Assembly (NCBI GenBank): GCA_964016885.1
Contig: OZ024740.1
Span: forward strand, 260,462,001 to 260,526,000
Length of the DNA: 64,000 nucleotides
DNA from: Eledone cirrhosa
Lineage: Eukaryota
Reading direction: 5' to 3'
The notes beneath the pieces are model-generated. The model had not been told where the DNA came from. It did not search any database and saw nothing but the letters and a program-made list of their open reading frames with translations. Both the position numbers and the translations under genes were made by a program. How positions within the stretch are numbered: position 1 is the stretch's first letter; every line of letters begins with the position of its first letter. Positions 7,788 to 62,700 of the stretch are shown in pieces.

Positions 7788-7852
7788 ATGTGTATATATG
7801 TGGGTGTGTGTATGTGTGTATGTATATGTATGTGTGTGTGTATGTATGTGTG

Positions 7853-7895
<43 letters not shown>

Positions 7896-8299: not shown

Positions 8300-8396
8300 T
8301 TATACCCTTTATTATTTCCTTACCTTATAAAATTATGTTTTTTCACAAAAAAGTATTCTGTCTCTTATATATTCCATGTGCCATTACCAACGTCAA

Positions 8397-9526
<1,130 letters not shown>

Positions 9527-16423: not shown

Positions 16424-16720
16424 GAGGTTGACTTTGCCTTTCATCCTTACGGGGTCGATAAAATAAAGTACCAGTCATGCACTGGGTAATTGCTGGCCTT
16501 GTGCCTAAAGTAGAAACAATTATAATATATTATTGGCGGTGGATTGGCAGTATTGGTAGAGAGTCGGACGCCATGCTTTCCAGCATAGTTACATCCCTTT
16601 ACGATCTGAGTTCAAATCCCGCCGAGGTTGACTTTGCCTTTCATCCTTACGGGGTCGATAAAATAAAGTACCAGTAATGAACTGGGTAATTGCTGGCCTT
16701 GTGCCTAAAGTAGAAACAAT
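16424..16720 (+). mobile_element. Tandem SINEs (5'-truncated copy + full copy at 16535-16720)
   Basis: B-box-like GAGTTCAAATCCC; body gactttgcctttcatccttacggggtcgataaaataaagtacc; many copies in the window. Confidence 0.85.
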
Positions 16721-22545: not shown

Positions 22546-22588
<43 letters not shown>

Positions 22589-22948
22589 CAACTAGAAATT
22601 GATTAACATATAAATAAACATATGAAACAATCACAGGGGATAATTTTTACAAGTGTGTAAGCACTCATAGCTAGGTAGGTAACTAAATAAAGTTAACTAG
22701 AACTTCAAAAATAGATACCTTATAATATGATTAATCTTCCCTGTATATATTCCATTAAAGAAATATATAAAGGACTTGACTGCTGTTTCTAGTTGTCGAT
22801 AACCCTATTCACGCCACTGGGACGAAGCTGGTATGATGTGTAATTTTTGTAGATACAGCACGTGTTACTGGCCAATCGCTGATTTGAACTTAATGTGGGT
22901 ATGGTGTGACGTGCGGTGGCCGCAGGCGGGGGAGTGCTCGACCGAAAG

Positions 22949-22967
22949 GGCCAGCAGAGGGCGCTCT
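22949..22967 (+). promoter_or_regulatory. CTCF-type motif
   Basis: GGCCAGCAGAGGGCGCTCT matches the CCASYAGRKGGCRS consensus; binding not shown. Confidence 0.45.
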
Positions 22968-22973
22968 CTAGTG

Positions 22974-23075
22974 GTGCCTAGCAACGGGGTGAACGCCAGT
23001 TTGGGCAGTGCCTAGCAACGGGGTGAACGCGAGTTTGGGCAGTACCTAGCAACGGGGTAAACGCCAGTTTGGGCA
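22974..23075. repeat. 3 x 34-bp tandem repeat
   Basis: gtgcctagcaacggggtgaacgccagtttgggca x3, no spacers. Confidence 0.95.
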
Positions 23076-23654
23076 TCTCCCGGTGTTAGGCAGTTGGACG
23101 CAGGCGGGCGAGGAGTAACCAGCAGTGGAGATAGCGGTGCCTATGAAGAGCGAAACGATATGGCACTGTTTGTACCAATGTAGAAACTACCAGTCTTTAA
23201 ACTACCATGAGTGGAGATGGCAGCGCCTATGAAAAGCGGTAAGTGAGATAGCTTTTTCCAAACACACTTAATGCGTAAACACAGATCGCTGGACTTCTTC
23301 CTTGTTGAAAATCCAAGCTTCGGCCTCCGTCGTTTACGATTCGATTAATTGGTGAAATATATTTCTTTAATGGAATATATACAGGGAAGATTAATCATAT
23401 TATAAGGTATCTATTTTTGAAGTTCTAGTTAGCCTTATTTAGTTACCTACCTAGCTGTGTGTGCTGACACACTTGTAAAATGTATCCCCTGTGATTGTTT
23501 CATATGTTTATTTATATGTTAATCAATTTCTAGTTGTTATAAAATGCTCGGACCTATTCATTAGAATCTTGGAGCTTATTTTACGGGTTATATGGCGCAT
23601 GCCTTTCTGGCATGACACCCATAATTTTGATTTAGATTAAATTCATCTTAATTT

Positions 23655-23707
<53 letters not shown>

Positions 23708-25063: not shown

Positions 25064-25150
<87 letters not shown>

Positions 25151-25306
25151 AAAGAATAGAGGTGTAACACACAAGTTATTATATATTGGTAAACGGAATA
25201 GAAAATGCTGACAAATTGTTCACAGTTGAAAAATGGTTTAATTAGGAATAAAAGAGTATTAGTGATTGTATGGGTTAGTATTCAGTTGTGGTTTTAAGTT
25301 TTTAAG

Positions 25307-25344
25307 TTTTTACCGGTTGCGCATTTCTAAATGCTTTTCAAAAA
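25307..25344 (-). ncRNA. Hammerhead-like motif, U3-A8 and GCAA variant (left arm)
   Basis: Reverse complement of 27032-27069. Confidence 0.5.
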
Positions 25345-25663
25345 TAATTTTGAGATAGAGTGTCCGTGCTGTTTGCTCTGATCTGATTAGTTTTGGGAAT
25401 TCTACCTGTTTTTATGTTAAAAAAGTGGCTCCAGCGTTATTTTTGTGTTGCAAAAATGCTTGTGGTCAAAACAATTTTGATTGGTCGGTAGAGGTCATGT
25501 GAATGTAAAAAGTTGATTTTGCGCCAAGACTGTTTTTATGTTAAAAAAGTGGCTCCAGCAAAACTTCTTGGTCAAAACAATTTTGATTGGTCGGTAGAGG
25601 TCATGTGGATAAAAAATTGATTTTGCGCCAAGATTGAGAAATGACTCTTTCACAACAAATGTG

Positions 25664-25714
<51 letters not shown>

Positions 25715-25789
25715 TAGTAGTAGTAGTAAGGTGTTCGATGCTGCGACAATGGCCAGCAGCGATGTGTGTCAAATGGCTATTAAGATAAG

Positions 25790-25883
<94 letters not shown>

Positions 25884-26521
25884 GCAGAGTAATTCGATGG
25901 TCAGTAAGAATGTGTCTGAAAGCAATGGGGGTATTTTAGCATGTCAAAAGATATTTTTCAGCTTTTGTCTTATACGGAGAAGTGCGCGTGTGTGTGTGTG
26001 TGTGTGTGTGTGTATAAGTCTCTTTGTATGTTGATGTACGCGTGTGTATGTGTTTGTGTATATATATGTGTGTGTGGGGGGGTGGACCAGTATTGTTTTC
26101 CCCCTGGTAAAATGGTGTACATTATTCGATTTTTTCAGTAAAATCGGTTCTCTTAATAGAACATCAAAAATCTTAACAATAAAAGGTGTGAAATGATATT
26201 CACTATATATATATATATACACATACATATATTCACTACATATATATATATATATACATATACACATACATATATATGCACATATATGTTTTTGTATTGC
26301 ACCATAGAGCATGTGTGTTTACCAGGGGGAAAAAAATACTGGTTCACCCACACACACACATATATACACAAACACATACACACGCGTACATCAACATACA
26401 AAGAGACTTATACACACACACACTTCTCCGTATAAGACAAAAGGTGAAAAATATCTTTTGACATGCTAAAATACCCCCCATTGCTTTCAGACACATTCTT
26501 ACTGACCATCGAATTACTCTG

Positions 26522-26591
<70 letters not shown>

Positions 26592-27031
26592 ATCTTAATA
26601 GCCATTTGACACACATCGCTGCTGGCCATTGTCGCAGCATCGAACACCTTACTACTACTACTACTACACACACATACACACACACACACATGTACACACA
26701 CACACACACACACATATTTGTTGTGAAAGAGTCATTTCTCAATCTTGGCGCAAAACCAATTTTTTATCCACATGACCTCTACCGACCAATCAAAATTGTT
26801 TTGACCAAGAATTTTTGCTGGAGCTAGTTTTTTAACATAAAAACAGTCTTGGCGCAAAATCAACTTTTTACATTCACATGACCTCTACCGACCAATCAAA
26901 ATTGTTTTGACCACAAGCATTTTTGCAACACAAAAATAACGCTGGAGCCACTTTTTTAACATAAAAACAGGTAGAATTCCCAAAACTAATCAGATCAGAG
27001 CAAACAGCACGGACACTCTATCTCAAAATTA

Positions 27032-27069
27032 TTTTTGAAAAGCATTTAGAAATGCGCAACCGGTAAAAA
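27032..27069 (+). ncRNA. Hammerhead-like motif, U3-A8 and GCAA variant (right arm)
   Basis: ttt-TTGAAAA-GCATT taga AATGC-GCAA-CCGG-TA-aaa. Confidence 0.5.
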
Positions 27070-27186
27070 CTTAAAAACTTAAAACCACAACTGAATACTA
27101 ACCCATACAATCACTAATACTCTTTTATTCCTAATTAAACCATTTTTCAACTGTGAACAATTTGTCAGCATTTTCTATTCCGTTTA

Positions 27187-27231
<45 letters not shown>

Positions 27232-29555: not shown

Positions 29556-30686
29556 CACATCAATGGCCATGGTGTTCTGTATCCTTCGTTTGTATTTTTA
29601 TTTTTTTAAATAATTTTTTACAGTTTTCCCCTCGAAAAATTGTTTTTCATTAGCCTTGTTTCCGTTCGTTGTTTTGTCCTCTGTTCATTTTCTTAAGTTT
29701 ATCCACACTAATGTGACGTACGTATTATCTCTTCCACCACCCCCATTTATTTCAATCGCTCACATTTTTAACACATCTTACTTTCTTCTTCTTGCTTTTT
29801 TTTATTCCTTTCTTTTTTCTTTATTTGTTTCCTTTGTTTTATTCATGACTCCCGTGCTATAAGAGGCACCACTATTTTTCCCTAACGTCACAGAAAATTC
29901 TATATACATTTTTTGTAGCTTAATTACTATAGATTAATGTTTTTACCCTCGTCTCTTGCTCCACTGGACATGGAATTATAAATTTACAAGTGCAAAGCAT
30001 AAGCTTAGGTATGTTTTCAGACATACAAAAAATAAAGATTTATCAGTGTTTTTCCACAAGCATGTTAAAATATGTTAGATCTGTTAATTGTTTACAGCAG
30101 AGGTTGTTAAACAAGTTTTTTTTCTAAGGATATATGGCAATGCATTCCGTTATTTATGATAGAAAGATTTGAAAATATTTAGAAGATTTTTTTAGAAGAT
30201 TTTCGTTATTCAAAGATCTCATGGAAGTGAGATTAATAAAATTAATGCTGTGAAAATTGTTTACAGACATATATATTCTTTAACCCATGCGTACACAGTT
30301 ACCTATTGTTTTTCTAATCAGGTTCTAAAGAAAAAATTAGTTTATAGTGTTGGTGTATTTCAAATATGTTCATCCACGAACATTTCGAAAAATGTTTTTT
30401 TTTATCGTTGTTGGTCTATTTACGGATCCTTATCTAAATGTTTTACGGTGTATCAAGTATTTTCATACACATCAATATATTGTTTTACTTAAAAAAAAAA
30501 ACCTTTACGAAAAACTAGGGTTTGATGTGATTTAGTACATAATTAAGTTAATAATAATTTAGTACATATTATTGTGTCAACATATCGTTATTTACCGGTA
30601 CCAGTTAATTTACGGTTCCTTATTTAAATATCATTACTGTGTATGTCTATTATCCTGAAAAATGTTCATATATTGTTTCATTCTTG

Positions 30687-30870
30687 GGCGGTGAATTGGC
30701 AGTATCGGTAGAGGGTCGGACGCCATGCTTTCCAGCATAGTTACATCCCTTTACGGTTTGAGTTCAAATCCCGTCCAGGTTAACTTTGCTTTTCATCCTT
30801 AAATCGATAAAATAAAGTACCAGTAATGCACTGGATAATTGCTGGCTTTGTGCCAAAAGTAGAAACAATT
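30687..30870 (+). mobile_element. SINE copy
   Basis: Same family as 16535-16720. Confidence 0.85.
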
Positions 30871-31185
30871 ATATTAAGGAATATTTATGAAGGACTAGTG
30901 TTTGTTTTGATGCAATATATATTTAATTAAATTTATATTTATATCAATGCGTCTATAGATGAAATCAGAATAAATACCAAACATTAGAAAAAAACTATAA
31001 TGATTCTTAGTATATCATTGGGGAGTTAGGTTTTCAACTTTCCAAATCTATCCGCGGAAGTATTTGGAACTTTTGGTAGATAAGTATATGTGTACATAAC
31101 CTACATAAATATATATAATATAAAGAATATATATAAAAAAAATACACAAGAGAATATAGACATAAGCGATTCATACACCCACCTC

Positions 31186-35814: not shown

Positions 35815-37646
35815 CACAATCTAAAGCCCACTATTACAATGAAGCGTTAGCTAGAGCAGGATATAGTGATAAAATTATGTACATAGATAATAATAGACAA
35901 ACTAACCAAAATAACAACAATTTTAATTACGGCAACAACTTTAACAACTATAATAGAAAGCATTACAATAATTCCAAAAGCCAAAAAAGAAATAGAACTA
36001 GGAATATAATATGGTTTGCCCCCCCCCCCCCCCTTCTCACTAAATATTAAAACCCACATCGCTAAACTATTTTTTAATGCTCTTGATAATCGCTTCCCTA
36101 GAACACATAGGTATCACTCAATTTTCAATAGACATACTATAAAATTAACCTACTCATCCACCAAAAATTTAGCACAAAATATTAATAGAATAAATAATAG
36201 GAATTTAAAACCTAGCCAAAATACCGATAATAGCATAAATAATATCCAAGTTAACAAATGTAACTGTAGAGATAGATCTAAATGCCCGTTAAATAACAAT
36301 TGCTTAGTTAAAAATATAATATACAACTGTAATGTTAAAACGGACTTAAATTCTTTTAACTATGTTGGTTCCACCTCGACAGAATTTAAACTTCGCTATA
36401 ATAACCACAAGAATTCTTTCACAGATCCAAGCAAAAAATCCTCAACATCACTATCAGGCCTACTCTGGCAACTTAGGCATGATAACGTTGGATATTCAAC
36501 GGCTTGGAATATAGTCTCAAGAGGGATTCCTTTCAATTCATCCTCTGAGACATGTGACCTCTGCGCGGAGGAGATATTCTTTATACTAAAATCTAAAAAT
36601 TCCCTTAATTTACGGACAAATTTATTCAGTTGCTGCAGACATAGATTGAACTCAACTTTTAAATATAAATATAAATTTAAAATGTAGTATATTTAATTTG
36701 ATTTATAATTATTTATGAAACTCGCCGATAAATCTTTCGATTCCTTTTTATTTTAAACATTCTTCATGAATAATTAAACTACCCTAAAAGCTGATGCTCC
36801 AAATATATCGAATACATTTTACACTAGATAAACTTCTATATTAAATATAAGACCAAATGGGTATCCTAAACTTTTGGAATGTTTTCTGCTAGACAGGATT
36901 TGGTAAATAATTTTTGGTTTTGTTTGCTTTTGATTCTGATGCTTATAACGAACTTGGCAATATATTGTCAATTAACTTCGAAGGGTTGATCTCTGTGGTT
37001 GATTTGCGGGGCATTCTATGTTTTATTTTTATTTTAATATTTTTAATATTTTTAATATTTTTAATATTTTTAATATTTTTATTTTTAATATTTTTTTGAT
37101 TTTTTGTTTTTTATTTACTTTTGTTTCTGATATTTTTATTGATATATTGATATCTGTTCTCTATTTATGCTTGAACGATAATCATGTAGAGTAAAGACAT
37201 GAATAGTATTGTTAAAATTAATGTAGACTCTATATATATTTGTGTGTATGTACACATATATGTATACTTAAATTTTTATAGCACAATGAGAATGTTTTCG
37301 TGTGAAATAGGAATTTGCAGAGCTGATCACGTAAATTCACATGGATGTGTATTGTATAAAATCTGGGATAACCTTCTATTTTATCTCAACTCTAATTATA
37401 AACCTAGGAATTTTAGACTAGACATATGATCATTATTTTTCACACATTATTGATACGTGTCTCATTCATGAATACTGATATTTACATTATAATGCCTGGT
37501 TTATACGAATTGATATTTTTTTACATTGATGAAACATAGTGTTTTAAATCTGCCTCGTTTTTGTCTGGATATTTTTCTTTTCTCTCTATGTAACGGCTGT
37601 TTTCTCTCTTAACCACATATATCTATCTCTACATTAATACTAGAGC

Positions 37647-37677
<31 letters not shown>

Positions 37678-38160
37678 ATATATCATTGATACATCATTCA
37701 ACTGGTGCCCAACTACCTAGTTTCTTTCTCTCTATCTCTATCTATATCTATCTCTCTATATTTTCTCTCTCTCCTCTCTTCTCTCTCTCTCTCTCTCTAT
37801 CTATCTCCCTCTGTGTTTTTTCCTCTCTCTATATATCTCTCTCTGTTTCTTTACATGAATTTCTTCTCTCTATCTATCTCTCTATATCTATCTCTTTCTA
37901 TTTAGTTGCATGCATTTCTTCTTTTTCTTCGTTTTTCTTTCTTTCTTTTTATAACTGTCCCTAATATTTTTTCACTACCAAATCAACTTTTCAAATAGAA
38001 GTCGAAGTTGAAAGGTATGTCGAATCTATCTATTTATAAGACTGTTTATATTGTATTTTGTCTGAAGAAGGCATAACATATTTTTAATATGATATCCCTG
38101 AAATATATATAATGAAATAAATATGGTTTTATAAATATAGTTTCCATTTATTTAATATCG
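35815..38160 (+). mobile_element. Naiad-like PLE, 5'-truncated (GIY-YIG ORF ending 36687) with long 3' UTR and terminal HHR
   Basis: YYNEALARAGY, WFAPPF, CNCRDRSKCPLNNNC, YVGST, CDLC; terminus shared with 49384-49494. Confidence 0.87.
38054..38119 (+). ncRNA. Hammerhead ribozyme candidate, canonical core
   Basis: tattttgt-CTGAAGA-agg..cct-GAA-ATATATAT-A-atgaaata. Confidence 0.7.
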
Positions 38161-38225
38161 TATATATATATATATTAACAAAAGATCAGAGGCCATATTC
38201 AGTTGATTCAGGTTTATTTAAAACT

Positions 38226-42307: not shown

Positions 42308-42365
42308 TTATAATAATTATAATGACAACAATAATAGTGGTTGTAACGCTACTACTACTAATAAT

Positions 42366-42757
42366 AATTGTTTCTACTTATGGCACAAGACCAGCAATTA
42401 CTGGTACTTTATTTTATCGACATTACTGGTACTTTATTTTATCGACCCCGTAAGGATGAAAGGCAAAGTTAACCTCAGCGGGATTGAGCTCAGACTGTAA
42501 AGGGACATAACTATGTTGGAAAGCATGGCGTCCGACTCTCTACTGATACTGCCAATCCACCGTCTACTAAAAATAATTGTTTCTACTTTTGGCACAAGGC
42601 CAGCAATTATCCCAGTACATTACTGGTACTTTATTTTATCGACCCTGTAAGGATGAAAGGCAAAGTTAACCTCGGCGAGATTTGAACTCAGAATGGCAAG
42701 GGCCGTAACTCTATGCGTCAAAGCATGGCGTCCGACCCTCTACCAATACTGCCAATA
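42366..42757 (-). mobile_element. Two tandem SINE copies
   Basis: Reverse complement of the 16535 family, twice. Confidence 0.85.
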
Positions 42758-43692: not shown

Positions 43693-44265
43693 GTTAAGCA
43701 ACTTTCCACATTTTTTATTGTATTTTGTTTAATGTACGCTCTAATACCTGTTCTATCTTTCTCTCTTACTCACCTATTGGCCCATACATGTGAAATTGAT
43801 TGGTATTGAGCACGTGGCTGGTTGGAATATTCCAAATTCAAATTCTAACCAGCGCGCTAACTCTGTATCGCTGTCTAATTGTCTGCTGGCATTAAATTTC
43901 GGGAACGGTTTTAGATACTACCATTGTTTACTGTCGCACCGTATTGCCATGGTACTTGGAGACTAGGGCTGAATGCTACCTTTCTATTGTACAGCGATAC
44001 GAGACAGATTTTTCTCTAATCTATTTTTTCACTCACTTGTGTTTGATCTGAGATATGTTGGTTGAGTTTTTATGGAAGGGTCGAAGAATAGAATCTCGAC
44101 TCCCAGCCACGTTAATTTCTGAACCACTATCCAATCGATTGACGGTATTTTGATGACGCGAAAGGATTTCAGTATTGCTGTGTCACCTGTCGCATTTATA
44201 GCCAACACAGACTGTGTTGTATCGAGGCAAATAACTTTGTGTGTACTCTGGGATTTATACATAAC

Positions 44266-44449
44266 TGTTTCTACTATTGGCACAAGGCCAGAAATTACCC
44301 AGTACATTACTGGTACTTTATTTTATCGACCCCGTAAGGATGAAAGGCAAAGTCAACCTCGGCGGGATTTGAACTCAGATCGTAAAGGGACGTAACTATG
44401 CTGGAAAGCATGGCGTACGACCCTCTACCGATACTGCCAATCCACCGCC
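44266..44449 (-). mobile_element. Full SINE with 18-bp target-site duplication
   Basis: TSD ctgggatttatacataac at 44248-44265 and 44450-44467. Confidence 0.92.
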
Positions 44450-44828
44450 CTGGGATTTATACATAACCTCAGCTATTAAGTACGCTGAGATACAACCGGT
44501 ATTAGCAGGGGAAACTTATGCTAGTTCCGTTAGCCTCTTATATATATATAATCACCATCATCATTATCTGAGGGAGAGAGAAGTAGAGCGAGAAAGAGAA
44601 AGAGGGAGGGTGAGAGAAAGGTTAACAAACCTTCAATACAAGCTGGTAGGTATTTTCCACATCTAATTTTAAATCTCGGAAACTTGGAGTTTTAGTTTGA
44701 TCAGGTAGTTTTATATATATATATGTGTGTGTATATATATATCCGTATGTATTTGACGGCTGGGGGGAAAATGTACTTAATACCCAAGTAGAGTTTAAAT
44801 ATTCATTTTATTAGGCGAAATAGTGAAT

Positions 44829-46616: not shown

Positions 46617-46947
46617 TTCCTTTGTCAGTGTTGAACAAATGAGCAACGATGGTTATTAGACACTGTACGGCTTAATTCGGGATGTTTGTTTACAAACACA
46701 GCGAGCATTATAATAAATGTTCGGTGAATCCATACGTACATATATATATGTGTGCATGTATGTATATATATATATACATACTACTGTACATCTGTATACA
46801 TATATGTATGTACGTATACATACTTATATTTAAGTAACAGCCGTACTAAGAGTGAGAAATGAAATTTCGTTTCATTTTTTCCGTTTATATATATATATAT
46901 ATATACAATATATTAACAAATGGAAACTATATTTATAAAACCATATT

Positions 46948-47013
46948 TATTTCATTATACATATTTCAAGGGCCACCAAGGCAGATTATGGTGCGCTTTC
47001 ATCAGATAAAATA
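46948..47013 (-). ncRNA. Hammerhead ribozyme candidate (left arm)
   Basis: Reverse complement: tattttat-CTGATGA-aag..ctt-GAA-ATATGTAT-A-atgaaata. Confidence 0.7.
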
Positions 47014-49383
47014 TAATATAGATTAGTTTTATAAATAAATATTGACATACCCTGAAAAATGCAACCTTCACGGTTGGAGTCTCCAGGATAGTGGAGATAT
47101 TAGATTTATTGTTGGTTTATTATGCAAATTAGTGACGGAAAGGTTTAAATAACAGTATATTTAAATTACGCCGTTGGAAGAGGAAAAAAACGAAATAGAA
47201 AAAGAAAGAGATAATAATGATAATAATTATATGACAACTAACCATAATTTTAACAACTATAATAGGAAACCTTACAATAATTCGAAAAACAAAAAAAGAA
47301 GTAGAACTAGGAATATATTATGGCTCGCTCCCCCTTTCTCATTAAGTATTAAAACTCCTATTGCTAAATTATTCTTTAAAGCTCTAGAACACATAGGTAT
47401 TACTCAATATTTAATAGACATACTATAAACTTATCGCATTCCACCACCAGTAATTTGGCGCAGAATATTAATAGAATTAATAATAGAAACTTAAAACCTA
47501 ATCAGAATACCATTAATAACCCCAGCAATATCCAATTTAATAATACGGCTCCTAGGAACTTAAATTTTGATAAATGTAACTGTAGAAATAAGTCTAACTG
47601 TCCGCTAAATAACAATTGTTTAGTTAACAATATAGTATATAATTGTAACGTAAAAACTAATTTAAATTCATTTAATTATGTAGGCTCTACCTCCACAAAT
47701 TTTAAGTCCCGTTTTAATAACCATAAATGCTCTTTTACGAATATAAATAAAAAATCTTCAACTTCTCTATCTAATTTACTATGGGACCTTAAACCAAAGA
47801 ACACTAACTATTCTTTACTTTGGAATATTATCTCCAAAGCTCCTCCATTCAATGCTTCATCTGAAAATTGTTCTCTTTGTATAGAGGAAATATTCTTTAT
47901 ATTAAAAAGTAAAAATTCTGTTAATTTAAGGAATAATCTTTTCAGTTCTTGTAAACATCGGTTGAACTCAACGTTTAAATATATATATAAAATGTAATAC
48001 ATAACTAATCTTTATTACACCTACCGATAAATCATTAGATTCCTTCATGCGACTGCTTATAACTCTCTTAAAGAAAAAATCTTTTCTTGGAAATTTTTCT
48101 TGATAAACGTACTGAAAGATTAAAAGAAAATTTTTTGAAAATTCCTCTGATGGGTATAAGAAAATTATAATTCATATTTTATACTGTGTATTTTATATTT
48201 CTATATTCTTATATTTTTTTAATTCATTGTAATTCATATTTTATATTGTGTATTTTATATTTCTATATTCTTATATTTTTCAAATGCTTAATATATATAT
48301 ATATCAAAATATTTATTTATATATATATGAGATAAACATAGTGATTTTGATGTATATGGTATAACCTAAAATTTATGCTTTAAATATATTCTATAAATAT
48401 ACTCTTATGAAAGTGTGTATGGTTTATGCTTTGGATATATTCCTATGAACATTTTAAATATTATAATTTCTATGTTATGACGTTATAGCAAGCGAATTTA
48501 TGTTTTAACAGTTATAACTGTATGACAGCTAAAATTGTGAATTTATAAATTTATAACTTACTATAAAATAACATAAGATTCATACTCTAATTACATTATT
48601 AAAGAGGAAAATTTAAATTTTTAACTTTTTAACCTTGTAGCATTTAATCCTTAGAGTTACCTGAATTATTAATAAATCACTAACAATTTTCCTTTACGTT
48701 GTACTGCTATTATAATTATAATACAAATAAGGGATTATTCTTCTGTAAACTCTCTGAATTTCCATGGGTTAAAATTGTTCGGATACAATTTTTTAATAAT
48801 TAATTTTTAATATTTTTTTAATAATTTTTTAATAATTAATGATAATAATATATATCTTATTATAATAATAATAATATATATGGTTTTGTAATAATAGTAT
48901 ATTTTTTAATAGTATATATAAATATAAATAAAAGTTTTTTTTAACATACACATTTAAACTACTGATTGAATTGATAAATTATTAATTAAACATTTAATCA
49001 AATTTATTAATTAAACGCTAGATAAAATTCCTCAACCTATCATTATAATGAATCCGGCTATTATTCATCCACAATATATTCATTTCTTCGCTTCTTCTCT
49101 CATAACGTAAACAATAATTACGCTATTACTGTCCTTATAACTAATATTGTCTCCCACTTAAATATACTCACGTTGTTTCTCTTTCTCTTTCTTTTTCTAT
49201 TTCTTTTTTTTTCCCTCTTCCAACGGCGTAATTTAAATATGCTGTTATTTCAACCTTTCCGACACTAATTTGCATAATAAACCAACAATAAATCTAATAT
49301 CTCCACTATCCTGGAGACTCAAACCATGAAGGTTGCATTTTTCAGGTTATGTCAATATTTATTTATAAAACTATTCTATATTA

Positions 49384-49449
49384 TATTTTATCTGATGAAA
49401 GCGCACCATAATCTGCCTTGGTGGCCCTTGGAATATGTATAATGAAATA
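49384..49449 (+). ncRNA. Hammerhead (right arm), GAAA mutated to GGAA
   Basis: Otherwise identical to the left-arm copy. Confidence 0.6.
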
Positions 49450-49580
49450 AATATGGTTTTATAAATATAGTTTCCATTTGTTAATATATTGTATTTTTAC
49501 TCCAATTAATTTGTTGAGTGCTTTATATCAGTTATAAAAATATTTTGCTTGTTGTATCCCAACAAATTAAATATAACCTC

Positions 49581-49685
<105 letters not shown>

Positions 49686-50058: not shown

Positions 50059-50792
50059 CCCAGACTGGACTAAGTTTCTTCTACCATGATCCTCGCCAGA
50101 AATGAATTCAAAATGACTAAGAACTATCACGTGGCCAGCGTCAAGGCAGAAAGTTCGTGATTGGTGCCTGTCGGCGAGTAGGCTGGTTGCTATAAAGCGC
50201 AGCCGAATACTGCCTAAAGTCTTACTCAACCTTACGGGAGTATATATTAAATTCAAAGGGTATATATATATATACTTAGACATAGTCACAGATGCATATA
50301 TGAGTTTGGCAACCATTCACAGTGTGGTTCAATGAAGAATTAATTAAGCAAATAATTATTAATCAGAGCTATATATAAAAATGTAGGTCCAAAGAACCAT
50401 TAGATGATAAAATATATACAGTGTTTCCTCTCCTAATCAGTATAAATCGACCACATAAAAATTCATTTAAACGAGACTATAAGTTTAAAATGTACTTATG
50501 AACTAATAATAGACAAATGATAAAGACTATTTCCAGCGATTGAGTTCTAGCACGTGGCCTGAATTCCTTTTAGAATTCCTTGTCCTGCGCATGTATTGTT
50601 TTTTTGGCGGTAATCTTCTTCATCATTTTTGAATCAGTTTGAGAATTTCTTTAGAACTGCTAGAAGAACAACCTGGCAGCTACATCAAGCACTGATGTTG
50701 ATTATCGCTAAATACTGATGTTGATTTGATTATCAATATTAGTATTATTGGGCACCCCCTGAAGAATTATAAGAGCCCACTTGAATAAGTAT

Positions 50793-51051: not shown

Positions 51052-51114
<63 letters not shown>

Positions 51115-51156
51115 CTTCAAAATATTAATAAATATAGACATTCATGTGATCAAATA

Positions 51157-51222
51157 TATTTTATTATACATATTTCAGAGATACTGAGCTATTACAACAG
51201 TACGTCCTCATCAGATAAAATA
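51157..51222 (-). ncRNA. Hammerhead ribozyme candidate (left arm)
   Basis: Reverse complement of 56585-56650 with one loop difference. Confidence 0.72.
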
Positions 51223-52947
51223 AGTTGATTCCTGACATACCTTGACTATGTTCATGGTTATAATTTAGTCATGGCAGTGATTAGTTATGACAAAACTCGA
51301 TATTTATATACCTTAAGTTGAAACATGAAAAATTACATATAATACAGAGGGTGCGTATGAGAATGTGTAAAATGGTATATAAATAATTAATAATATATAA
51401 TACATAAATTTATATAACTGTTAAAAATTTAAATAATAATAATTTATTCATACCTCATTATTGTTGATAGTCGAAGTGATAGATCGAGATAGCAAATCAC
51501 GAGGAAAGAGAGAGAAAAGAAGGAGATTTGATCGTAGGAACAAGAGAAGGGAGAAATGATCAAATGATAGAGAGAGGAAAATAAGTTAAATCGTATAATC
51601 AAAGGGAAGGAGATATGTAATGTAACATGTAAGTAGCGTATAATTAAATAGGGGGAAAGAATAATGCGTGACCGTTTATTTTCAAATTTTAAGTTAATTA
51701 AAAATAGTCAATTAATCAAATGACATTAGATTTTAGACTATAAAATTTTAAAGGATTTATATTATTGTATTATATCTGAGTTCAAGCAAATGTAACGTGA
51801 AAGAGATAAATTTATGTGTATCATAATTCCAAATGTATTCACAAGTGTATTTAAAAGTATATTAAAATCAAGAATATAATCAATATATTAGTAAAAAAAC
51901 ATTAAAATTAAAATGTTATTAATAAGTCATAAAGCATTATAAATGTATTTAATAAGATATTATTAAACCAGATTTATCTAGATATACACATTTGTATAAT
52001 TTATATATAGACTATAAATTTTAAGGTTTAAGACGATATTAGTCACTTATATGTAGTATAATTACTATTAAGAGTGTTATAAATTTAATTCAACTAGATT
52101 TTACCGTATTTAAAATTTTACATAAATTTGCCGGTTAGACTGATAGCTCCCTCTAAGTCGGACATTGGAGTAATCAGTAAAAATATTATTGATAGAATTT
52201 TACCAACATTGAAATTGAAGTCAAAGCTGAGCTTATGGAAGGACACTAGTGAAGTAATTGACTGGTTTAAAAATATAGAAAATAAGAAAAATCTCAAATT
52301 TATTCAAATGGACATAGCAAGTTACTACTCATCTATTACACCTAACCTCTTGAATAAGGCTTTGCCTTACGCTTATAAACATACAGATCTAACTAGCGAG
52401 GAGATTCATATGATATTAACGGCTAATTAATTTTAATAATGAGTTTTGGACCCGATCGGATAGGAATAGACATTTTGACATTACCATGGGGTCATCTGAC
52501 TCTGCACAAATTACCGATCTTCTAGGAATTTTTATCCCCAATATGGTAAATAAAAAATTGCCGGAGATTACCGGTGGTTTATATAGGGATGATATTTTAT
52601 TTACTGTAGTTAAACATAGCAATACAGAACTAAATAGGGTTAAGAAAACAATAATAGAATTTTTTAAAAATGAGGACCTCAAATTAGAAGCTGAAAGTAG
52701 CACTAAGGTAGTTAACTTCCTTGATGTTACCCTTAATTTAAATTCAGGACTATATTACCCCTTCCATAAGCCTAATGAAAACCTAAATTATGTTAACTAT
52801 TACTCAAATCACCCTAAATCCGTGAAAAATGCAATAGTCAATAGTGTTCAAAAATGCTTAACTAGATTATCCGCTAACAAATCCATTTTTGATGAAAAAG
52901 CTGGATATTATAATGAGGCATTACATAAGGCAGGGTATAAAAATAAT

Positions 52948-53118
52948 TGTTTCTACTTTAGGCACAAGGCCAGCAATTACCCAGTGCATTACTGGTACTT
53001 TATTTTATCGACCCCGTAAGGATGAAAGGCAAAGTCAACCTCGGCGGGATTTGAACTCAGATCGTAAAGGGACGTAACTATGCGTCCGAGCCTCTACCGA
53101 TACTGCCAATCTACCGCC
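52948..53118 (-). mobile_element. SINE inserted in the PLE RT region
   Basis: Family match; TSD-like ggcag..tataaaaataat on both sides. Confidence 0.88.
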
Positions 53119-56100
53119 CGGCAGTATATAAAAATAATATCCCGGCAGGATATAAAAATAATATCCCGGCAGGATATAAAAATAATATTGAATATCTAGA
53201 TAATACTAATTCGAATTATAAATTAGGTAAAAATACGAATAACATAAATAAAGCGGACTCTAAAAATTATTTAAATATAAATAAAAATGATAATGTCGTG
53301 AATAAATCTCGGAAAAAAATCAGAACCAAAGCAGTGATTTGGTATGCACCTCCCGCATCTTTAGCTATCAAAACACCCCCTGGCAAATTTATTCTTTAAG
53401 ACTTTAGATAAATGCTTTCCCAGTACACATAAACACCATTCTATATTCAATAGACATACAATTAAGCGATCTTACTCTACAACTATGAATATGGCACAGA
53501 ACATTGCAAAAATAAATAGTAGAATTCTTAATCATAACCAACAAACAATTAGGGATAATGGCAATATTAACATTAGCAATAATATTGATACTGTGAATAA
53601 CAATAACATTAACTTAAGCACTCACAACAGAACACCTCCAACTATTAACAATGATAACGTGTACAGTTTAAATTATAATAATAACAGTAAATCGAAATGT
53701 AACTGTAGAAATAGATCGAATTGCCCTCTGCAAAATAATTGTCTTGACAAGAACCTAGTTTATAAATGTACTGTTAAAGCAACTAACATCACCTACAACT
53801 ATATAGGAGCAACCTCATCGAGCTTTAAATTAATATATTCGAATCACAAACACTCTTTTTCGAATCCAGATAAGATATTCTCCACCTCTTTATCACAACT
53901 CATAAGGTCCTTAAAAGACAAAAATTTAGAGTACTCAATATTTTGGTCAAAACTTTGTAATAGCCAAGTCTACATTAATTCCTCCGTATCACCTAACTGC
54001 AATCTTTGCGATATGGAGACCCTATTAATAATTACTAATTATGATAAGTTAATTAACAAAAAAAGTGAATTATTCTCAAATTGCTTGCACAAAGCTACAT
54101 CTACATTCCAAGCTTCACAAAAAAATCAGGAAAAAACATTGAATAAATGTGAAATGATTTAGACGTTTATTAATAACTCTGAGTGTGAAACAATATTGGC
54201 TCAGATTAAAAATTCTTGTAATGCTTTTATTATTTATACTATTATTAATATTAGATTAAGGGTTTCTACCTTAACATTGAAATTGTTAACCTGATCTCTT
54301 GTTGAGTACGTATGACCTTTAGATTGTTTAAATACCTTTAATTTTGGTTTTCGTATTTTCGAAATCTTATATCTTATATATTTCATACCTTTAATGTATT
54401 CAGGCTTGTAAACCGTTTAATTACTTTGAAAGGTTATTTACGATTCACGAGGATATGATTATACATTTATAGTATTTATCTCCTTAGATCCAAGTTGATA
54501 AATTTTTTTTGTATACTTAAATTGATGTAAAATTTTAAATACAGTAAAATCTAGTTGAATTAAATTTATAACACTCTTAACAGTAATTATACTACATATA
54601 AGTGACTAATATCGTCTTAAACCTTAAAGTTTATAGTCTATATATAAATTATACAAATGTGTATATCTAGATAAATCTGGTTTAATAATATCTTATTAAA
54701 TACATTTATAATGCTTTATGACTTATTAATAACATTTTAATTTTAATGTTTTTTTACTAATATATTGATTATATTCTTGATTTTAATATACTTGTGAATA
54801 CCTTTGGAGTTATGATAAACTTAAATTTATCTCTTTCACGTTACATTTGCTTGAACTAAGATATAATACAATAAAAAGATTTTAAAGGATTTAAACACTA
54901 TTGACTATTGCATTTTTCACGGATTTAGGGTGATTTGAGTGAGTAATAGTTAACATAATTTAGGTTTTCATTGGGCTTATGGAAGGGGTAATATAGTCCT
55001 GAATTTAAATTAAGGGTGACATCAAGGAAGTTAACTACCTTAGTGCTACTTTCAGCTTCTAATTTGAGGTCATCATTTTTAAAGAATTCTATTATTGTTT
55101 TCTTAACCCTATTTAGTTCTGTATTGCTATGCTTAATTACAGTAAATAAAATATCATCCCTGTATAAACTACCGGTAATCTCCGGCAATTTTCTATTTAC
55201 CATATTGAGGATAAAAATTCCTAGAAGATCGGTAATTTGTACAGAGTCAGATGACCCCATGGTAATGTCAAAATTTCTATTCCTATCCGATCGGGTCCAA
55301 AACTCATTATTAAAATTAATTAGCCGTTAATATGATATTAATCTCCTCGCTAGTTAGATCTGTATGTTTGTAAGCGTAAGACAAAGCCTTATTCAAGAGG
55401 TTAGGTGTAATAGATGAGTAGTAACTTGCTATGTCCATTTGAATAAATTTGAGATTTTTCTTATTTTCTATATTTTTAAACCAGTCAATTACTTCACTAG
55501 TGTCCTTCCATAAGCTCAGCTTTGACTTCAATTTCAATGTTGGTAAAATTCTATCAATAATATTTTTACTGATTACTCCAATGTCCGACTTAGAGGGAGC
55601 TATCAGTCTAACCGGCAAATTTATGTAAAATTTTAAATACGGTAAAATCTAGTTGAATTAAATTTATAACACTCTTAACAGTAATTATACTACATATAAG
55701 TGACTAATATCGTCTTAAACCTTAAAATTTATAGTCTATATATAAATTATACAAATGTGTATATCTAGATAAATCTGGTTTAATAATATCTTATTAAATA
55801 CATTTATAATGCTTTATGACTTATTAATAACATTTTAATTTTAATGTTTTTTTACTAATATATTGATTATATTCTTGATTTTAATATACTTTTAAATATA
55901 CTTGTGAATACCTTTGGAGTTATGATAAACTTAGATTTATCTCTTTCACGTTACATTTGCTTGAACTAAGATATAATACAATAATAAGATTTTAAAGGAT
56001 TTAAATTTTAAAGGATTTAAATTTTAAAGGATTTAAATTTTAAAGGATTTAAATCCTTTAAAATTTTATAGTCTAAAATCTTCTGTCATTTGATTAATTG

Positions 56101-56584
56101 ACTATTTTTAATTAACTTAAAATTTGAAAATAAACGGTCACGCATTATTCTTTCCCCCTATTTAATTATACGCTACTTACATGTTACATTACATATCTCC
56201 TTCCCTTTGATTATACGATTTAACTTATTTTCCTCTCTCTATCATTTGATCATTTCTCCCTTCTCTTGTTCCTACGATCAAATCTCCTTTTTTTATCTCT
56301 TTCCTCGTGATTTGCTATCTCGATCTATCACTTCCACTATCAACAATAATGAGGTATGAATATATTATTATTATTTAAATTTTTAACAGATATATAAGTT
56401 CATGTATTATATATTATTAGTTATTTATATACCATTTTACACATTCTCATACGCACCCTCTATATTATATGTAATTTTTCATGTTTCAACTTAAGGTATA
56501 TAAATATCGAATTTTGTCATAACTAATCACTGCCATGACTAAATTATAACCATGAACATAGTCAAGGTATGTCAGGAATCAACT

Positions 56585-56650
56585 TATTTTATCTGATGAG
56601 GACGTACTGTTGAAATAGCTCAGTATCTCTGAAATATGTATAATAAAATA
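56585..56650 (+). ncRNA. Hammerhead ribozyme candidate (right arm)
   Basis: tattttat-CTGATGA-gga c gtactg..cagtat c tct-GAA-ATATGTAT-A-ataaaata; perfect 8-bp stem I. Confidence 0.72.
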
Positions 56651-56787
56651 TATTTGACCACATGAATGTCTATATTTATTAATATTTTGAAGTAATATTA
56701 ATAACTCCAGAAAACCTCACTGTAGAGTGCTTATAATCTATTGTGAAACTTTATTCATTGATGAATTCATTGAACCTTGTTAAACAG

Positions 56788-56850
<63 letters not shown>

Positions 56851-56851
<1 letters not shown>

Positions 56852-57020
56852 CTGTTTCTACTTTTGGCACAAGGCCAGCAATTATCTTAGTGCATTACTG
56901 TTACTGGTACTTTATTTTATCGAACCCGTAAGGATGAAAGGCAAAGTTAACCTCGGCGGGATTTGAACGCAATCCGTAAAGGGGCGTAACTGTGCTGCAA
57001 AGTATGGCGTCCGACCTTCA
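56851..57020 (-). mobile_element. SINE copy, 5'-truncated
   Basis: Family match. Confidence 0.8.
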
Positions 57021-57025
57021 ACTAA

Positions 57026-57078
<53 letters not shown>

Positions 57079-57787: not shown

Positions 57788-58437
57788 TAGACTATATATA
57801 TGTGTTTGTGTCTATATTATATCTGTATTTTTGACCGTTGGTCAGTCAATGGTAACATTGAGGACCGAATAAATTAAATTAACCGATATAAAAGACACAG
57901 AAGCGAAAACCAACCAAACAGCGAGTGTGTTCTGTTATTAATTCTGGCAATATTATTACACAAATATGACCCTCCCCAAGTATAACAATATATATATATT
58001 TATATATATATAGATATATATAGCTATGTGTGATTACACACTTTACAAATTATCCCCTGTGATTGTTTCATGTGTTTATTTCAAATATATATATATGTCA
58101 ATCAATTTCTAGTTGATATATATATATATATATATATATATATTACATCGCGGGAAATAGTCTGTATCATTTGTCTATTATTACTTCATAAATACATTTT
58201 AAACTTATAGCCTCGTTTAAATGATTTTTTATGTGGTTGATTTATACTGATTAGGAGAGGAAATACTGTATATATTTTAACTAATGGTTCTTTGGACTTA
58301 CATTTCGACGACTATTTCGAAACGGCTTGAGCTCTGCCGTCGGAATTAAAAATGTTCATATTACCCACTCTACTACCCTAAGTATGAAGTACTCTGGTGC
58401 GTTATGGTCCACCTGGCTCCTTACCACACCTCCTTAG

Positions 58438-58671: not shown

Positions 58672-58827
58672 ACCTAAGGTTTCAAGGCCCAGTATTGACC
58701 ATATCTACAGAAATGTAAGAGCGATCGAAATTGTGACCTATCTTCATATAGGTGCCTGAAGATCACCATTTTGATTCCTCTTACATTTCTGCAGATATGG
58801 TCAATATTGGGACTTGAAACCTTAGGT
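58672..58827. repeat. 156-bp imperfect palindrome with degenerate outward-facing HHR-like motifs
   Basis: Outer 50-bp arms are nearly perfect; each reads CTG(T/C)AGA..GAA-ACC tta GGT(C). Confidence 0.8.
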
Positions 58828-59147
58828 TTCTACTTTTGGCACACGGCCAGCAATTACCCAGTATATTACTGGTACTTTACTTTATCGACCCCATAAGGAT
58901 GAAAGGCAAAGTTAACCTCGGCGGGATTTGAACTCAGAACGTAAAGGGACGTAACTATGCTGGAAAGCATGGCGTCCGACTCTCTACCGATACTGCCAAT
59001 CCACTGCCAACAAATAATTATTTCTAGTATAGGCACAAGACCAGTAATTTGGGGAGAGGGGGAAGTCGATTAAATCGACCCCAGTACGTTAGTGGTGCTT
59101 TATTTTATCGACCCCGTAAGGATGAAAGGCAAAGTTAACCTCGGCGG
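58826..59147 (-). mobile_element. Two SINE copies
   Basis: Family match (58826-59008 full; 59019-59147 partial, longer subtype). Confidence 0.85.
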
Positions 59148-59750: not shown

Positions 59751-62700
59751 TTTCTTTATTAACCACAAGGGTTTACATAAAGTAGACATTAAGGACAGTG
59801 CAGGACAATACAGGACGGTACAAATGGGCATTTCTGCGTGTAAAAAACAAAAACAGAGGATGTAACAAAAAATAACAATGAAAAATTCCCCAATAGGGGG
59901 GGAGACTTCGGAGGGACATTTGTGGAGAAAGCCCAGTAAAAGGCCACAATGACCCTGACCACCAAGGCAAGTGCCCTCTCCCAGTTTTCCACCTTTAATT
60001 TACAGATATATACTCAGAGTAGGCCCATTCACTCGGGCCATTCTTGCTTCTCTCACCCATCTTTCAACAAAATGCTGGGAAGAGAGCACTTCCCTCTCTA
60101 CTCTGATTTTCCTTTTCAAATGAAATTTTAAAAAGTCAATCAGAGCATCACCGAAGAGGAAAGTGCTCGTCTTCAGCCCTATCAAACGTGTCCACCATAC
60201 TATCTCTTTCGCCATGGCCACCAGACAGATAAAAACTGCCTGCCCTTCCCGGCTAAAGGAGGAGGGCGGGGCAATCCTCACGATGGACTCAGATGATAGC
60301 CGGATCCGTCCTAAACGCGACAGCAGGTGTTCGACATAAACCCACAAGTCAGCAATTTTCGGACACTGGACGAGTGCGTGCAGGACGGTTTCGTCGCCCT
60401 GCGCGCATCTCGGACATGCCCGGCTGACGGCACCTCCATGCCTGTAGAGTTTATCCCGAACTGGCAAGGCTCCTCGGTAGCACTGCCAGGCCAGAGATTT
60501 CTGGAAGTTGTCCATAAGCCCTGGCCCGAAAGTTCTTCCGAAGAGATTGGCTAGTTGATTTTCGTCGACGCCTAGAGTTTCCCCAAGTACGTCGTCGCTC
60601 TTCCCCTCCACTAATCCTCTATAGAACGCCGAGGTGGAGTTTCCACCGATCACATTGCCCGATTGGTCGAGGGCTGTGAGCGCCTGAAGACATTCCAGTC
60701 TCCAGGCGCTCCCTCTCGGTCTTCGCTTGACCCAGGACTGCAGCTCCGTCAAGGAAACGAGCTGGGGAAATACGTGTCTAGCAAACGGCGACCACACCTG
60801 ATCACCGTCGAGGAAGAGGTGGAGATGTCGTAGCCTGAGCGCGTGCCTGCGCATCATCAGCCACGGCATGCCCAGCCCTCCACGTAGCGGGTGTTGACAA
60901 CAGATGGACCGCCTGACCATCGGAGCGCGTCCCTTCCACAAAAAGCGAAAGAGCAAACGCTCCAGCGCAGTCAGGCGAGGCTTAGGACAAGGTACGACGG
61001 TCAGGCGGAAGCAGATGACAGACGCGATGTACGCGTTAGCCACCTCCGCTCGACCTTTCAAGGAAAGCTTCCTCTCCGCCCATTTCTGGGTGAGAGAAGC
61101 CACCCTGCTCGTCACCTCGTCCCAGTTTTTGTCCGTCTGGAGGTCCGGACCGAACCAGACCCCTAGCAATTTAACCGGTCCGTCTGTCCAGCGTCCGACG
61201 ACGCTGTTGGACGGCATGGACCTGCCTCTCCAGGTGCCGAGCTGCAGGCCCACTGACTTCTCCTGGTTGATCATTGCTCCTGTCACCGCTTCGTATTCTC
61301 TTAGTGTAGTGCCGATCGCCTCGATGTGTTTGGCGTTCGACACCACTACGGTGACATCGTCCGCATATGCTGACACGGATCTTCCGCATCCTAGTTCGCG
61401 CGGGATGCCCCTCAACGTCTCCAGTTTGTGCAGTAATGGCTCGAGAGTCAATACGTACAAGAGGGACGAGAGGGGACATCCTTGGCGGACCGAGCGCATG
61501 ATGTTGAACGGTTCCGACAGGTGACCGTTCACTCTCACCACAGAGCAGATGTCGCTGTGCATGGCAGCGATCCAGCCTCTGAAGACGGGCCCAAAGCCAG
61601 CCGCCCTCAGGACTGCCGCTAGGTAACGATGGTCGACCCTATCGAAAGCTTTCGACTGATCTAAATTGATCAAGGACCCACCCGTGCCAGGTTCCCTAGC
61701 TACCCTCTCTACGATGTATCGCATGAGGTGGAGGTTGTCGTGGATGGATCTGTCGGGAATGGCGCATGTCTGCGCCTCTCCCACCAGACCACCAACGACA
61801 AGCGCCAACCTCTTTGCTAGCACCTTGGCCAAAATCTTGAACTCTGTGTTTAGCAGAGTTATGGGCCGGAAATTATCTATGTTATCCCCCTTGTTCGGAT
61901 CCTTTCTCAGCAGTGCCACCGCTCCTCGGCTCACAGAACTGGGAATTCTCCCGTTCTGTTGCCAGTTGCAGTAGACTTCCGCCAAGAGGCCTCCGAACAA
62001 GTCTGGCATCTGTACGTAAAGTTCATAGGGCAGACCATCCAAACCAGGCGATTTGCCCCTTGTGCAGCCAGTCATTGCCTCCCTTACTTCAGCGGCTGTT
62101 ATCGGCTTTTCGCAACACTTCGCCTCAGTGGCCGAGAGCCGCGGCAGTCCGTCGAGGTAGACACTAAAGTCCATCCTTCGACCCGGCCCACCGCTGCCCC
62201 GAACAGCTGAGCGAAGTGTCGCTGAAAAGCTTCATGCATTTGCCCGGGATCGAGTAACATGCGCCTGTCGTGGTCCACCAAAGACCGGATCGTGGCTTTA
62301 TTGCCACGACGCGCCTCCGCCACTCGGGCCCATTGAACGGTTTTCGTCCCCTCGTGTCTGAGAGCACGCATCCTAGCTCTGACAACGCAGCCTTCGTGCT
62401 TTGCATTGAAGAATTGGTCAAGGGCCAATTTCGCCGCAAGCACGTCGGTCGCAATGCCTTTGCTAAGCGCCTCGTCTAATTTTCTAACTAATTCTCCCTC
62501 TGCTCTATTTTTCTCTCTTGCTAAAGCCTTACTAAACCTAATCGATTCTATTCTAATCGCTCAGAGCAAACCACCACTTGTTGTTGACGATGGCCCCCGT
62601 CAACGCCCGCTAAACTAGTTCGCTAATCCGGTCTCTGTAGGCCTTGCGCGCTGGTAAGGACGCGTTTAGCTTCCAGTAGCCGGGTCCTCGTCTCTGAAGC

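Follow-up and report, generated by a model that had tools for sequence, protein, structure and literature searches.

A twice-folded, dead Hydra-type Penelope-like element in Eledone cirrhosa, with a tentative case for a local origin of its second fold

Within the 64,000-nucleotide stretch of the Eledone cirrhosa genome analysed here (the window), positions 51109 to ~56788 are a dead Hydra-type Penelope-like element (PLE) of ~5.7 kb that is folded twice. Its layout is A' R (SINE) E u a / R1' A, where A is the 3' terminal UTR with a candidate hammerhead motif (HHR), R the RT and E the GIY-YIG part, a prime marks inversion and the slash the central joint. The second fold was, in our modestly confident reading, made locally, by a break at a palindrome in the UTR and repair that copied the left arm; the family is abundant, and a single locus of it is not enough to decide how the fold arose. 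The features, in order along the window, are as follows.

3189-8613: neighbouring PLE, orientable
46903-49583: sister element, an orientable neighbour
51056..51111, no strand: left (TA)n target microsatellite (TA run)
51109..52129, minus strand: A', inverted 3' terminal UTR copy, tail-less (self-BLAST, alignments, contigs)
51157..51222, minus strand: minimal type I hammerhead motif of the left arm (our motif scan)
52112..52142, plus strand: junction J (inverted UTR to mid-RT), left copy (exact match)
52125..52948, plus strand: R, 5'-truncated Hydra-type RT, R1 up to 52852 and then R2, with a frameshift at ~52424
52949..53186, plus strand: holds a SINE-like insertion at ~52949-53120 with a target duplication of ~18 bp
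53187..54162, plus strand: linker and C-terminal GIY-YIG-type endonuclease region with the CxCx5C motif and a frameshift near 53390
54163..54518, plus strand: u, proximal 3' UTR, single-copy (self-BLAST)
54519..54895, plus strand: a, middle copy, the start of A in its native context
54894..55621, minus strand: R1', inverted copy of RT 52125-52852 with the same frameshift as R
55604..55634, minus strand: junction J, right copy (exact match)
55617..56698, plus strand: A, direct 3' terminal UTR copy (self-BLAST)
55990..56066, plus strand: four tandem 16-mers (first arm of the palindrome plus loop), ending in the intact palindrome
56585..56650, plus strand: minimal type I hammerhead motif of the right arm (our motif scan)
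56699..56788, plus strand: PLE tail of ~90 bp, right end only
56789..56850, no strand: right (TA)n target microsatellite (TA run)

Self-BLAST of the window places the inverted arms at 51109-52852 and 54890-56698 (1.74 kb) and shows the start of the UTR once more at 54519-54895, in the same orientation as its copy at 55617-56005 and opposite to that at 51762-52129, which bears out the arrangement put forward in the original prediction. The extent proposed there, 51109..56698, is correct on the left and too short on the right, since the element reaches ~56788 through a PLE tail of ~90 bp. In run X2, 13 contigs continue past 51109 as a loose end, and with an agreement of 1.0 this end gives the 19 bases that open what had been taken for the right flank; this much of the tail is known from family copies, and the remainder is deduced from the (TA)n boundary and from an 89-bp extension in a neighbour, to which its similarity is not significant (shuffle p 0.07). 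Both outer ends abut TA runs (51056-51111 and 56789-56850) and are true PLE 3' ends within (TA)n. The inverted duplication of the arms does not extend into the flanks, a continuation that had been named beforehand as evidence against the predicted history. We rejected a flank inversion (50379-50540 and 58147-58305, 92% identical) as a duplication of the locus; it has a third copy at ~49700 and is not contiguous with the arms, and is therefore a dispersed repeat. The tail, the SINE and the position of the central joint at a palindrome tip are all features that the original prediction does not contain.

In tblastn comparisons, three homologs cover the RT at 52119-52956 and then the endonuclease at 53304-54108, in that order. 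Pfam support is weak, with RVT_1 at E 0.018, below the cut-off, and no match to the endonuclease in the element. In an 8-row alignment, C112, C114 and C120 are invariant and form the CxCx5C linker motif, and C212/C215, E218, N231 and C240/H242 are likewise invariant, placing CxxC and CxH around E and N; these motifs are defined as in section 11 of PMC8557442. On inspection of the alignment the endonuclease lacks a CCHH motif, one Cys lying between both half-motifs, and an Arg that all 7 other sequences of the alignment have is replaced by Ile in the present copy. Truncation at the 5' end has removed the RWK and DKT motifs of the N terminus, which the aligned homologs have in full or nearly so, and the SINE, together with two further tandem units of ~24 bp that follow it up to 53186, interrupts the ORF at ~52949-53186. 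Judged from motifs and homologs rather than from a tree, the element probably belongs to the Hydra clade. Like the members of that clade, as the cited part of Craig et al. 2021 (PMC8557442) describes them, it has an RT with a C-terminal GIY-YIG-type domain and a CxCx5C linker, no CxxC between the half-motifs, a candidate hammerhead motif near the 3' end and an insertion in (TA)n. Unlike them, the present copy lacks its 5' part, has two frameshifts and a SINE within it and is doubly inverted, and its UTR is long, at ~1.5 kb plus tail.

The 31-nt J occurs exactly twice in the window, at 52112-52142 (+) and 55604-55634 (-), and none of 100 shuffles reaches two occurrences; the prediction of an identical junction in both arms is thus confirmed. 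The native UTR context said to survive at ~54520 is also there, and differs from J upstream of the a segment. As had further been claimed, the reading frame is lost at one and the same place in the two RT copies (52420-52430 and 55316-55326), a lesion that, relative to homolog P0001, consists of ~3 missing residues and a change of frame. One X2 contig aligns over 154 of 190 letters and stops at 52423, as would be expected if family copies differ at this lesion. These shared features support the descent of both arms from a single template in which J and the frameshift were already present, and this part of the original prediction stands; against its other part, that the template was the antisense RNA of a parent elsewhere, lean the tail on the right arm, the star of UTR copies and the common palindrome tip described below. 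A near-identical tract of 517 bp with a single mismatch runs across J (p 0.0008; 0.002 composition-adjusted) and suggests later conversion between the arms, which weakens all arguments about dating. Two further looks at J are uninformative: none of the 24 listed read-contig pieces spans it, out of a set with 5694 more and from a sample that lacks this locus, and its pattern gave no match in metagenome contigs, a collection unlikely to include the host.

The central joint between a and R1' sits at the tip of the longest perfect palindrome in the element, which is intact at 56035-56066; the next longest is 12 bp. The joint has about 2 nt of microhomology, and the middle copy is cut 1-3 nt beyond the palindrome axis, a distance of 3 nt or less that a random break in A would achieve about 0.7% of the time. 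The end of the middle copy and the ends of the 16-mer units in the right arm fall within about 2 nt of the same palindrome point, coinciding as two sides of one break would. The left arm has a private deletion of ~15 bp at the palindrome (~51760), with five left-only substitutions within ~60 bp of this deletion at the axis (two left-only substitutions appear in the read table, both private to the left arm). All three UTR copies are thus rearranged at the same palindrome tip, and the deletion and private substitutions in the left arm suggest that it is fragile at the DNA level, although stalling of the RT at the same hairpin in RNA could be an alternative cause of the break position.

We infer the following order of events, and the enzymes involved, for a local origin. 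The element would have entered (TA)n with the plain layout A' R E u A tail, like other inverted-arm copies. PLE RT/EN acting in trans would have primed cDNA at both target ends from the family 3' end, including the tail in one case and leaving it out in the other, and the union of the two cDNAs would have created J. During integration or soon afterwards, the 3' A copy would have broken or stalled at the tip of the AT-rich palindrome, and its right-hand end would have annealed to the inverted arm, homologous to it and 4 kb distant. After several restarts, left as the four 16-mers, a, J and 730 bp of RT would have been copied, and the copied strand rejoined to the stub of a via the ~2 nt microhomology. 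Such steps would give the observed layout, but the frameshift and the shared substitutions would then have to come from a dead source copy or from RT error, which counts against this account. The outer ends match those of ordinary first-generation copies, and in both orientable neighbours, a control of two elements only, (TA)n borders the inverted arm immediately and is separated from the direct arm by an extension; the tail may, however, sit at either end of a PLE according to part of PMC8557442. Template switching between inverted repeats followed by a microhomology join has been described for DUP-TRP/INV-DUP (in part of PMC4888836), and template switching with self-annealing for the ends of L1 retrotransposition (in part of PMC11702581).

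The arms differ at 38 of 1719 positions (2.2%), 23 of the substitutions being transitions, and their divergence is equal in the RT (16/706) and the distal UTR (14/648; Fisher p = 1.0), so that all copies look the same age; for a local origin this means repair at or soon after insertion. The divergence comparison proposed in the original prediction went against an aged parent, since the middle UTR copy is not more distant than the arms: middle and right differ by 4/371 (1.1%) and left and right by 8/364 (2.2%). Over 352 columns, left and middle differ by 9 and middle and right by 4, with six changes private to the left, three to the middle and one to the right copy. The three copies form a star with no sign of an aged parent, subject to the conversion noted above. 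A mosaic right arm, proximally left and distally middle, was considered and discarded, as at 51827 and 51834, the two such sites visible, the letter of family contigs is that of the right and middle copies.

A second account, to which we give distinctly less credence, has a parent A' R E u A elsewhere transcribed from the opposite strand and this RNA copied in trans by reverse transcription primed at both target ends; a long cDNA on the left and a short one on the right would have been joined between a and R1'. Such an event would require only the usual two-ended PLE insertion acting on another RNA, it reproduces the layout exactly, and both ends are PLE ends in (TA)n. The arms also share J, the frameshift and at least 8 letters for which all contig depth of runs X1 to X3 has another letter (site comparisons from 40 of 219 table rows), and PMC3846280 covers trans mobilisation of pLTR-framed DNA and hypothesises antisense templates. 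The middle copy, on the other hand, is not extra-aged, with three private changes against about four expected per lineage, so that the parent would not be much older than the insertion unless conversion hid its age. The parent would also need a tailed inverted arm, which is tail-less in 2/2 neighbours; the coincidence of the middle break with the tandem in the right arm would be two independent events; and self-pairing over 0.37-1 kb would be expected of an RNA that contains both UTR copies. siRNA arises from inverted Penelope copies (part of PMC3681739). Set beside the local origin, which remains our preference, no sequence feature cleanly separates the two.

Both type I hammerhead motifs have an 8-bp stem I, with core and stems matched by the scan, and their folding energies are no better than those of shuffles (z -0.4 and -1.1). 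An Rfam search returned no hammerhead at E<=1 and only chance matches on TA runs, and both remain candidates by motif and stem pattern. PLE insertion in vitro is independent of hammerhead cleavage in the part of PMC11167929 consulted, so an intact-looking motif says little about use.

A single integration with polymerase fold-back, which we regard as improbable, differs from the local origin only in having no separate break. The top strand would have made A', jumped at J to the first cDNA and copied R E u a, a similarly improbable path; an equally doubtful continuation has it fold onto its own RT, copy R1', J and a, and return to the first cDNA for A and the tail. One such event would account for the equal ages of the copies and the tailed right arm, and has precedents in the self-priming proposed for PLEs (part of PMC3846280) and in a PLE protein that cuts and extends both strands in vitro (part of PMC11167929). 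A pause would, by our reasoning, be expected at the base of the template hairpin, not just past its tip; otherwise the sequence does not separate fold-back from early repair. Among 79 related metagenome loci, 7 have an inverted match of at least 35 bp and 38 a direct match; the five of the seven that were inspected have no orientable tail and no doubled junction, short-read contigs being a poor test.

How inverted and tandem PLE structures form, and whether antisense templates are used, are questions taken up in PMC3846280, PMC8557442 and PMC11167929. Inverted-pLTR PLE insertions (PMC8557442, Fig. 2 legend; PMC3846280; Penelope of D. virilis, PMC2377424), as far as these excerpts describe them, share an inverted, 5'-truncated 5' arm, a tail at one end and complex inverted structures with the present element, which has an inverted 3'-end copy at its 5' side and a tail at one end. 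It differs in that the non-native junction is itself duplicated in inverted form, the central joint connects two internal points, neither a native 3' end, and the tail is ~90 bp rather than 30-40 bp. With DUP-TRP/INV-DUP it shares a silent switch between inverted repeats (the A'/A arms), one microhomology junction (about 2 nt) and an inserted inverted copy of a nearby segment, as in one-sided invasion plus end joining. Here, unlike in that class, the scale is that of 1.1 kb of transposon sequence, and instead of a duplication-triplication-duplication pattern there is just one extra copy each of R1 and a; the element works like this class and is not filed as a member. L1 twin priming, in the portion of PMC11702581 cited, likewise has both target ends primed, secondary template switches and microhomology joins, but in L1 the second end is primed at an internal position of the same RNA, whereas the present element has its own 3' terminus at each outer end.

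That a dead inverted-arm PLE could be read from the opposite strand and its RNA retrotransposed in trans from the inverted end would be a new route of spread, one that we consider less likely than not. If true, a second lineage of reverse orientation could arise from each inverted insertion, successive generations of PLE palindromes would be nested in one another, and this locus would be evidence from a genome that mobilisation needs no signal other than the pLTR end, whichever way it points. Re-mobilisation of inverted PLEs from antisense RNA was not found described in the literature searched, which excluded most subscription papers, and the parts seen of PMC13282606 and bioRxiv 2026.07.22.740005 add nothing on structure. 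The duplicated non-native junction is a usable marker for the order of events: J at a second locus would indicate re-mobilisation of a dead inverted copy, and J unique to this locus would mean that PLE arms with an AT-rich palindrome rearrange themselves, in which case the relevance is mostly to repeat annotation and to caution in reading such structures.

We consider it very unlikely that the structure is an assembly or chimeric-read artefact. Long inverted repeats trouble assemblers (part of PMC8557442), the 517-bp tract could reflect polishing, and the read sets examined (four of seven listed runs, aligned to 51099-52962; best share of words 0.34; no RNA run among those listed) give no confirmation of the locus, contig runs X1-X3 lacking its private letters at six sites. 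The arms, however, differ by the substitutions counted above, the right arm has the family majority letter at 11 of the 12 listed arm differences in all three runs while breaking otherwise conserved residues of its own, and the two arms have separate ends and separate flanks. The SINE-like insertion seems to be absent from family contigs, and in three X3 contigs the loose end behind 52947 is similar to the window from ~53187. In one X1 contig, 51308 is linked to 52129 with a change of strand, possibly with letters between.

The locus carries the layout A' R E u a / R1' A, in which A is the terminal UTR, R the reverse transcriptase (RT), E the endonuclease, u the single-copy proximal 3' UTR and a a middle copy of the start of A; primes mark inversion and the slash the central joint. 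Self-BLAST recovered inverted arms at 51109-52852 and 54890-56698, with 38 differences (23 of them transitions) in 1719 aligned columns. The opening ~380 bp of the terminal UTR occur a third time, at 54519-54895. J, the non-native junction of inverted UTR to mid-RT, is common to both arms; its 31-nt sequence occurs exactly twice within the window, once in each arm (52112-52142 and 55604-55634). The context upstream of the middle copy is native, unlike J. The reading frame shifts at the identical point in the two RT copies, and about three residues are absent there in the alignment to the homologous protein P0001. All four features had been noted in the original prediction, and that observation is confirmed and extended here. 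The alignment of one family contig ends at 52423, with 36 letters remaining. A motif scan found a type I hammerhead motif in each arm; neither motif received an Rfam score, and their folding energy is unremarkable.

Searched against 348 candidate proteins, the RT fragment matched 12 at 34-44% identity, and the RT and endonuclease parts of the homologs map onto the locus in order. CxCx5C, CxxC and CxH motifs are present and CCHH is absent; these features and the (TA)n target match the Hydra clade of Penelope-like elements (PLEs) as defined in section 11 of PMC8557442, a placement by motifs rather than by a tree. The candidate hammerhead motif would also fit that clade. The element is a dead copy: it is 5'-truncated, has two frameshifts and a SINE-like insertion (~52949-53120), and its endonuclease has Ile where Arg is otherwise invariant.

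The right end was originally placed at 56698. However, in 13 contigs of one run (X2) the sequence beyond 51109 matches 56699-56717 in reverse complement (agreement 1.0), so the sequence from 56699 onward is the element's own tail, not right flank, and probably extends up to the (TA)n that starts at 56789. The whole unit thus lies between two TA runs, with an inverted, tail-less left end and a direct, tailed right end. The same tail arrangement is repeated in both orientable neighbours:

46903-49583, sister Hydra-type element: inverted 310-bp arm at (TA)n, endonuclease fragment, UTR, direct arm, ~89-bp extension, (TA)n
3189-8613, on the minus strand, long PLE of a different type: 1.4-kb inverted arms, DKG motif, pairs of Cys ahead of the endonuclease

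In the sister element the hammerhead core is intact in the inverted arm and mutated in the direct arm. The long PLE has a ~35-bp extension on its direct arm and adjoins a 5'-truncated Hydra-type element (1379-3192).

It had been proposed that antisense RNA of a dead, inverted parent elsewhere was retrotransposed in trans. Ordinary two-ended insertion of such a reverse RNA would reproduce the layout. There is some precedent in PMC3846280, which shows that pLTR-framed DNA can be mobilised in trans and puts forward antisense RNAs as templates. This origin would need a tail on the parent's inverted arm, whereas the two neighbours have it on the direct arm; a passage in PMC8557442 states that PLE tails may be at either end. 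With an aged parent, the middle copy should also have additional changes relative to each arm; the UTR copies show none (left-middle 9/352, left-right 8/364, middle-right 4/352; private changes 6 left, 3 middle, 1 right). Divergence between the arms is the same in the RT (16/706) as in the distal UTR (14/648). The hammerhead motif is no sign of use, since insertion in vitro does not require cleavage, according to part of PMC11167929. We regard an antisense parent as possible but not favoured, and rather unlikely.

A 517-bp tract across J (52068-52364 / 55382-55898) has one mismatch, against 2.2% over the whole arms (p 0.0008; 0.002 after composition adjustment). This points to later conversion between the inverted arms, or possibly to a polishing effect, and dating arguments are weakened in both directions because of it.

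The central joint has ~2 nt of microhomology and lies 1-3 nt beyond the axis of the element's longest perfect palindrome (56035-56066); the second longest is 12 bp. Four tandem 16-mers in the right arm end at nearly the same base as the joint, and a deletion lies at the palindrome axis in the left arm. This private deletion and an adjacent substitution cluster suggest that the palindrome is fragile in DNA. On balance, we lean towards a second fold made locally, by break and copy repair of an A' R E u A tail element. A would have broken at the palindrome tip; the right-hand end would have invaded the inverted arm, copied a, J and R1, and rejoined the stub by microhomology, giving a / R1' A tail. 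The two sides of the break would fall at one base, with the restart slipping at the site of the 16-mers. Comparable two-step events at inverted repeats and events at L1 ends are described in parts of PMC4888836 and PMC11702581, respectively. Against local repair, the equal ages of the copies would place it close to insertion, and an RT held up at that hairpin could look like a break. A mosaic right arm, considered as support for local repair, failed against the letters of the family contigs. Polymerase fold-back in one single event seems improbable. The flanks show no contiguous inverted duplication beyond the element; the presence of such a duplication had been named in advance as counting against retrotransposition of an antisense RNA.

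Four of seven sequencing runs (best share 0.34) were compared over 51099-52962; the results come from 40 listed difference rows out of 219 and from 24 listed pieces out of 5718. Right-private changes are not visible in this comparison. At least 12 of the 38 arm differences are among the rows listed; the right-arm letter is dominant at 11 of these 12 in all three contig runs (X1-X3), and at the other in one of two covering runs. Some otherwise conserved residues are broken in the right arm alone; the arms therefore decayed independently, and an assembly artefact is very improbable. At six or more sites among the rows listed the left-arm letter has zero depth in X1-X3, which indicates a sample without the locus. 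At eight or more listed sites the two arms share a letter that differs from all of the contig depth; their common template was therefore already distinct from the sample's copies, a difference that may reflect a source copy that was dead, a separate subfamily or another species. Summed depth, which is not copy number, reaches ~3-4 x 10^5 over the end with the hammerhead (51099-51224) and does not exceed ~10^3 in the interior. There seem to be very many short copies of the 3' end only, from the same or related families.

PLE insertions with inverted 5'-truncated arms, with a tail on one side, and with complex tandem or inverted structures have been described (parts of PMC8557442, PMC3846280 and PMC2377424). 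No description of a duplicated non-native junction was found in the PLE literature searched, with Hydra supplements and most subscription papers outside it, nor any report that an inverted PLE was mobilised again from its antisense RNA, again with most subscription papers outside the search. An inverted match occurs in 7 of 79 related metagenome loci, and the five inspected hold no comparable structure.

Other repeats in the window are as follows:

25148-27196 and 22584-23658, two (TA)n-flanked elements: long inverted arms, one-sided extension (~33 bp and ~117 bp)
20570-21373 and 35976-38165, 5'-truncated Hydra-type endonuclease fragments
16424-16726, 30686-30876, 42359-42756, 44261-44450, 56850-57026 and 58826-59146, examples of a SINE-like repeat
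60000-62231, minus strand, 743-codon open frame

The two (TA)n-flanked elements have no match to the Hydra-type protein homologs and are not orientable; the core of that at 22584-23658 is GC-rich and contains three tandem units. In the fragment at 35976-38165, a ~1.5-kb UTR ends in a hammerhead motif (38054-38119), followed by (TA)n without a tail. The SINE-like repeat (~190 bp) is abundant, at 52949-53120 and at least eight other places, often beside TA runs. The open frame resembles, by inspection, a non-LTR retrotransposon RT.
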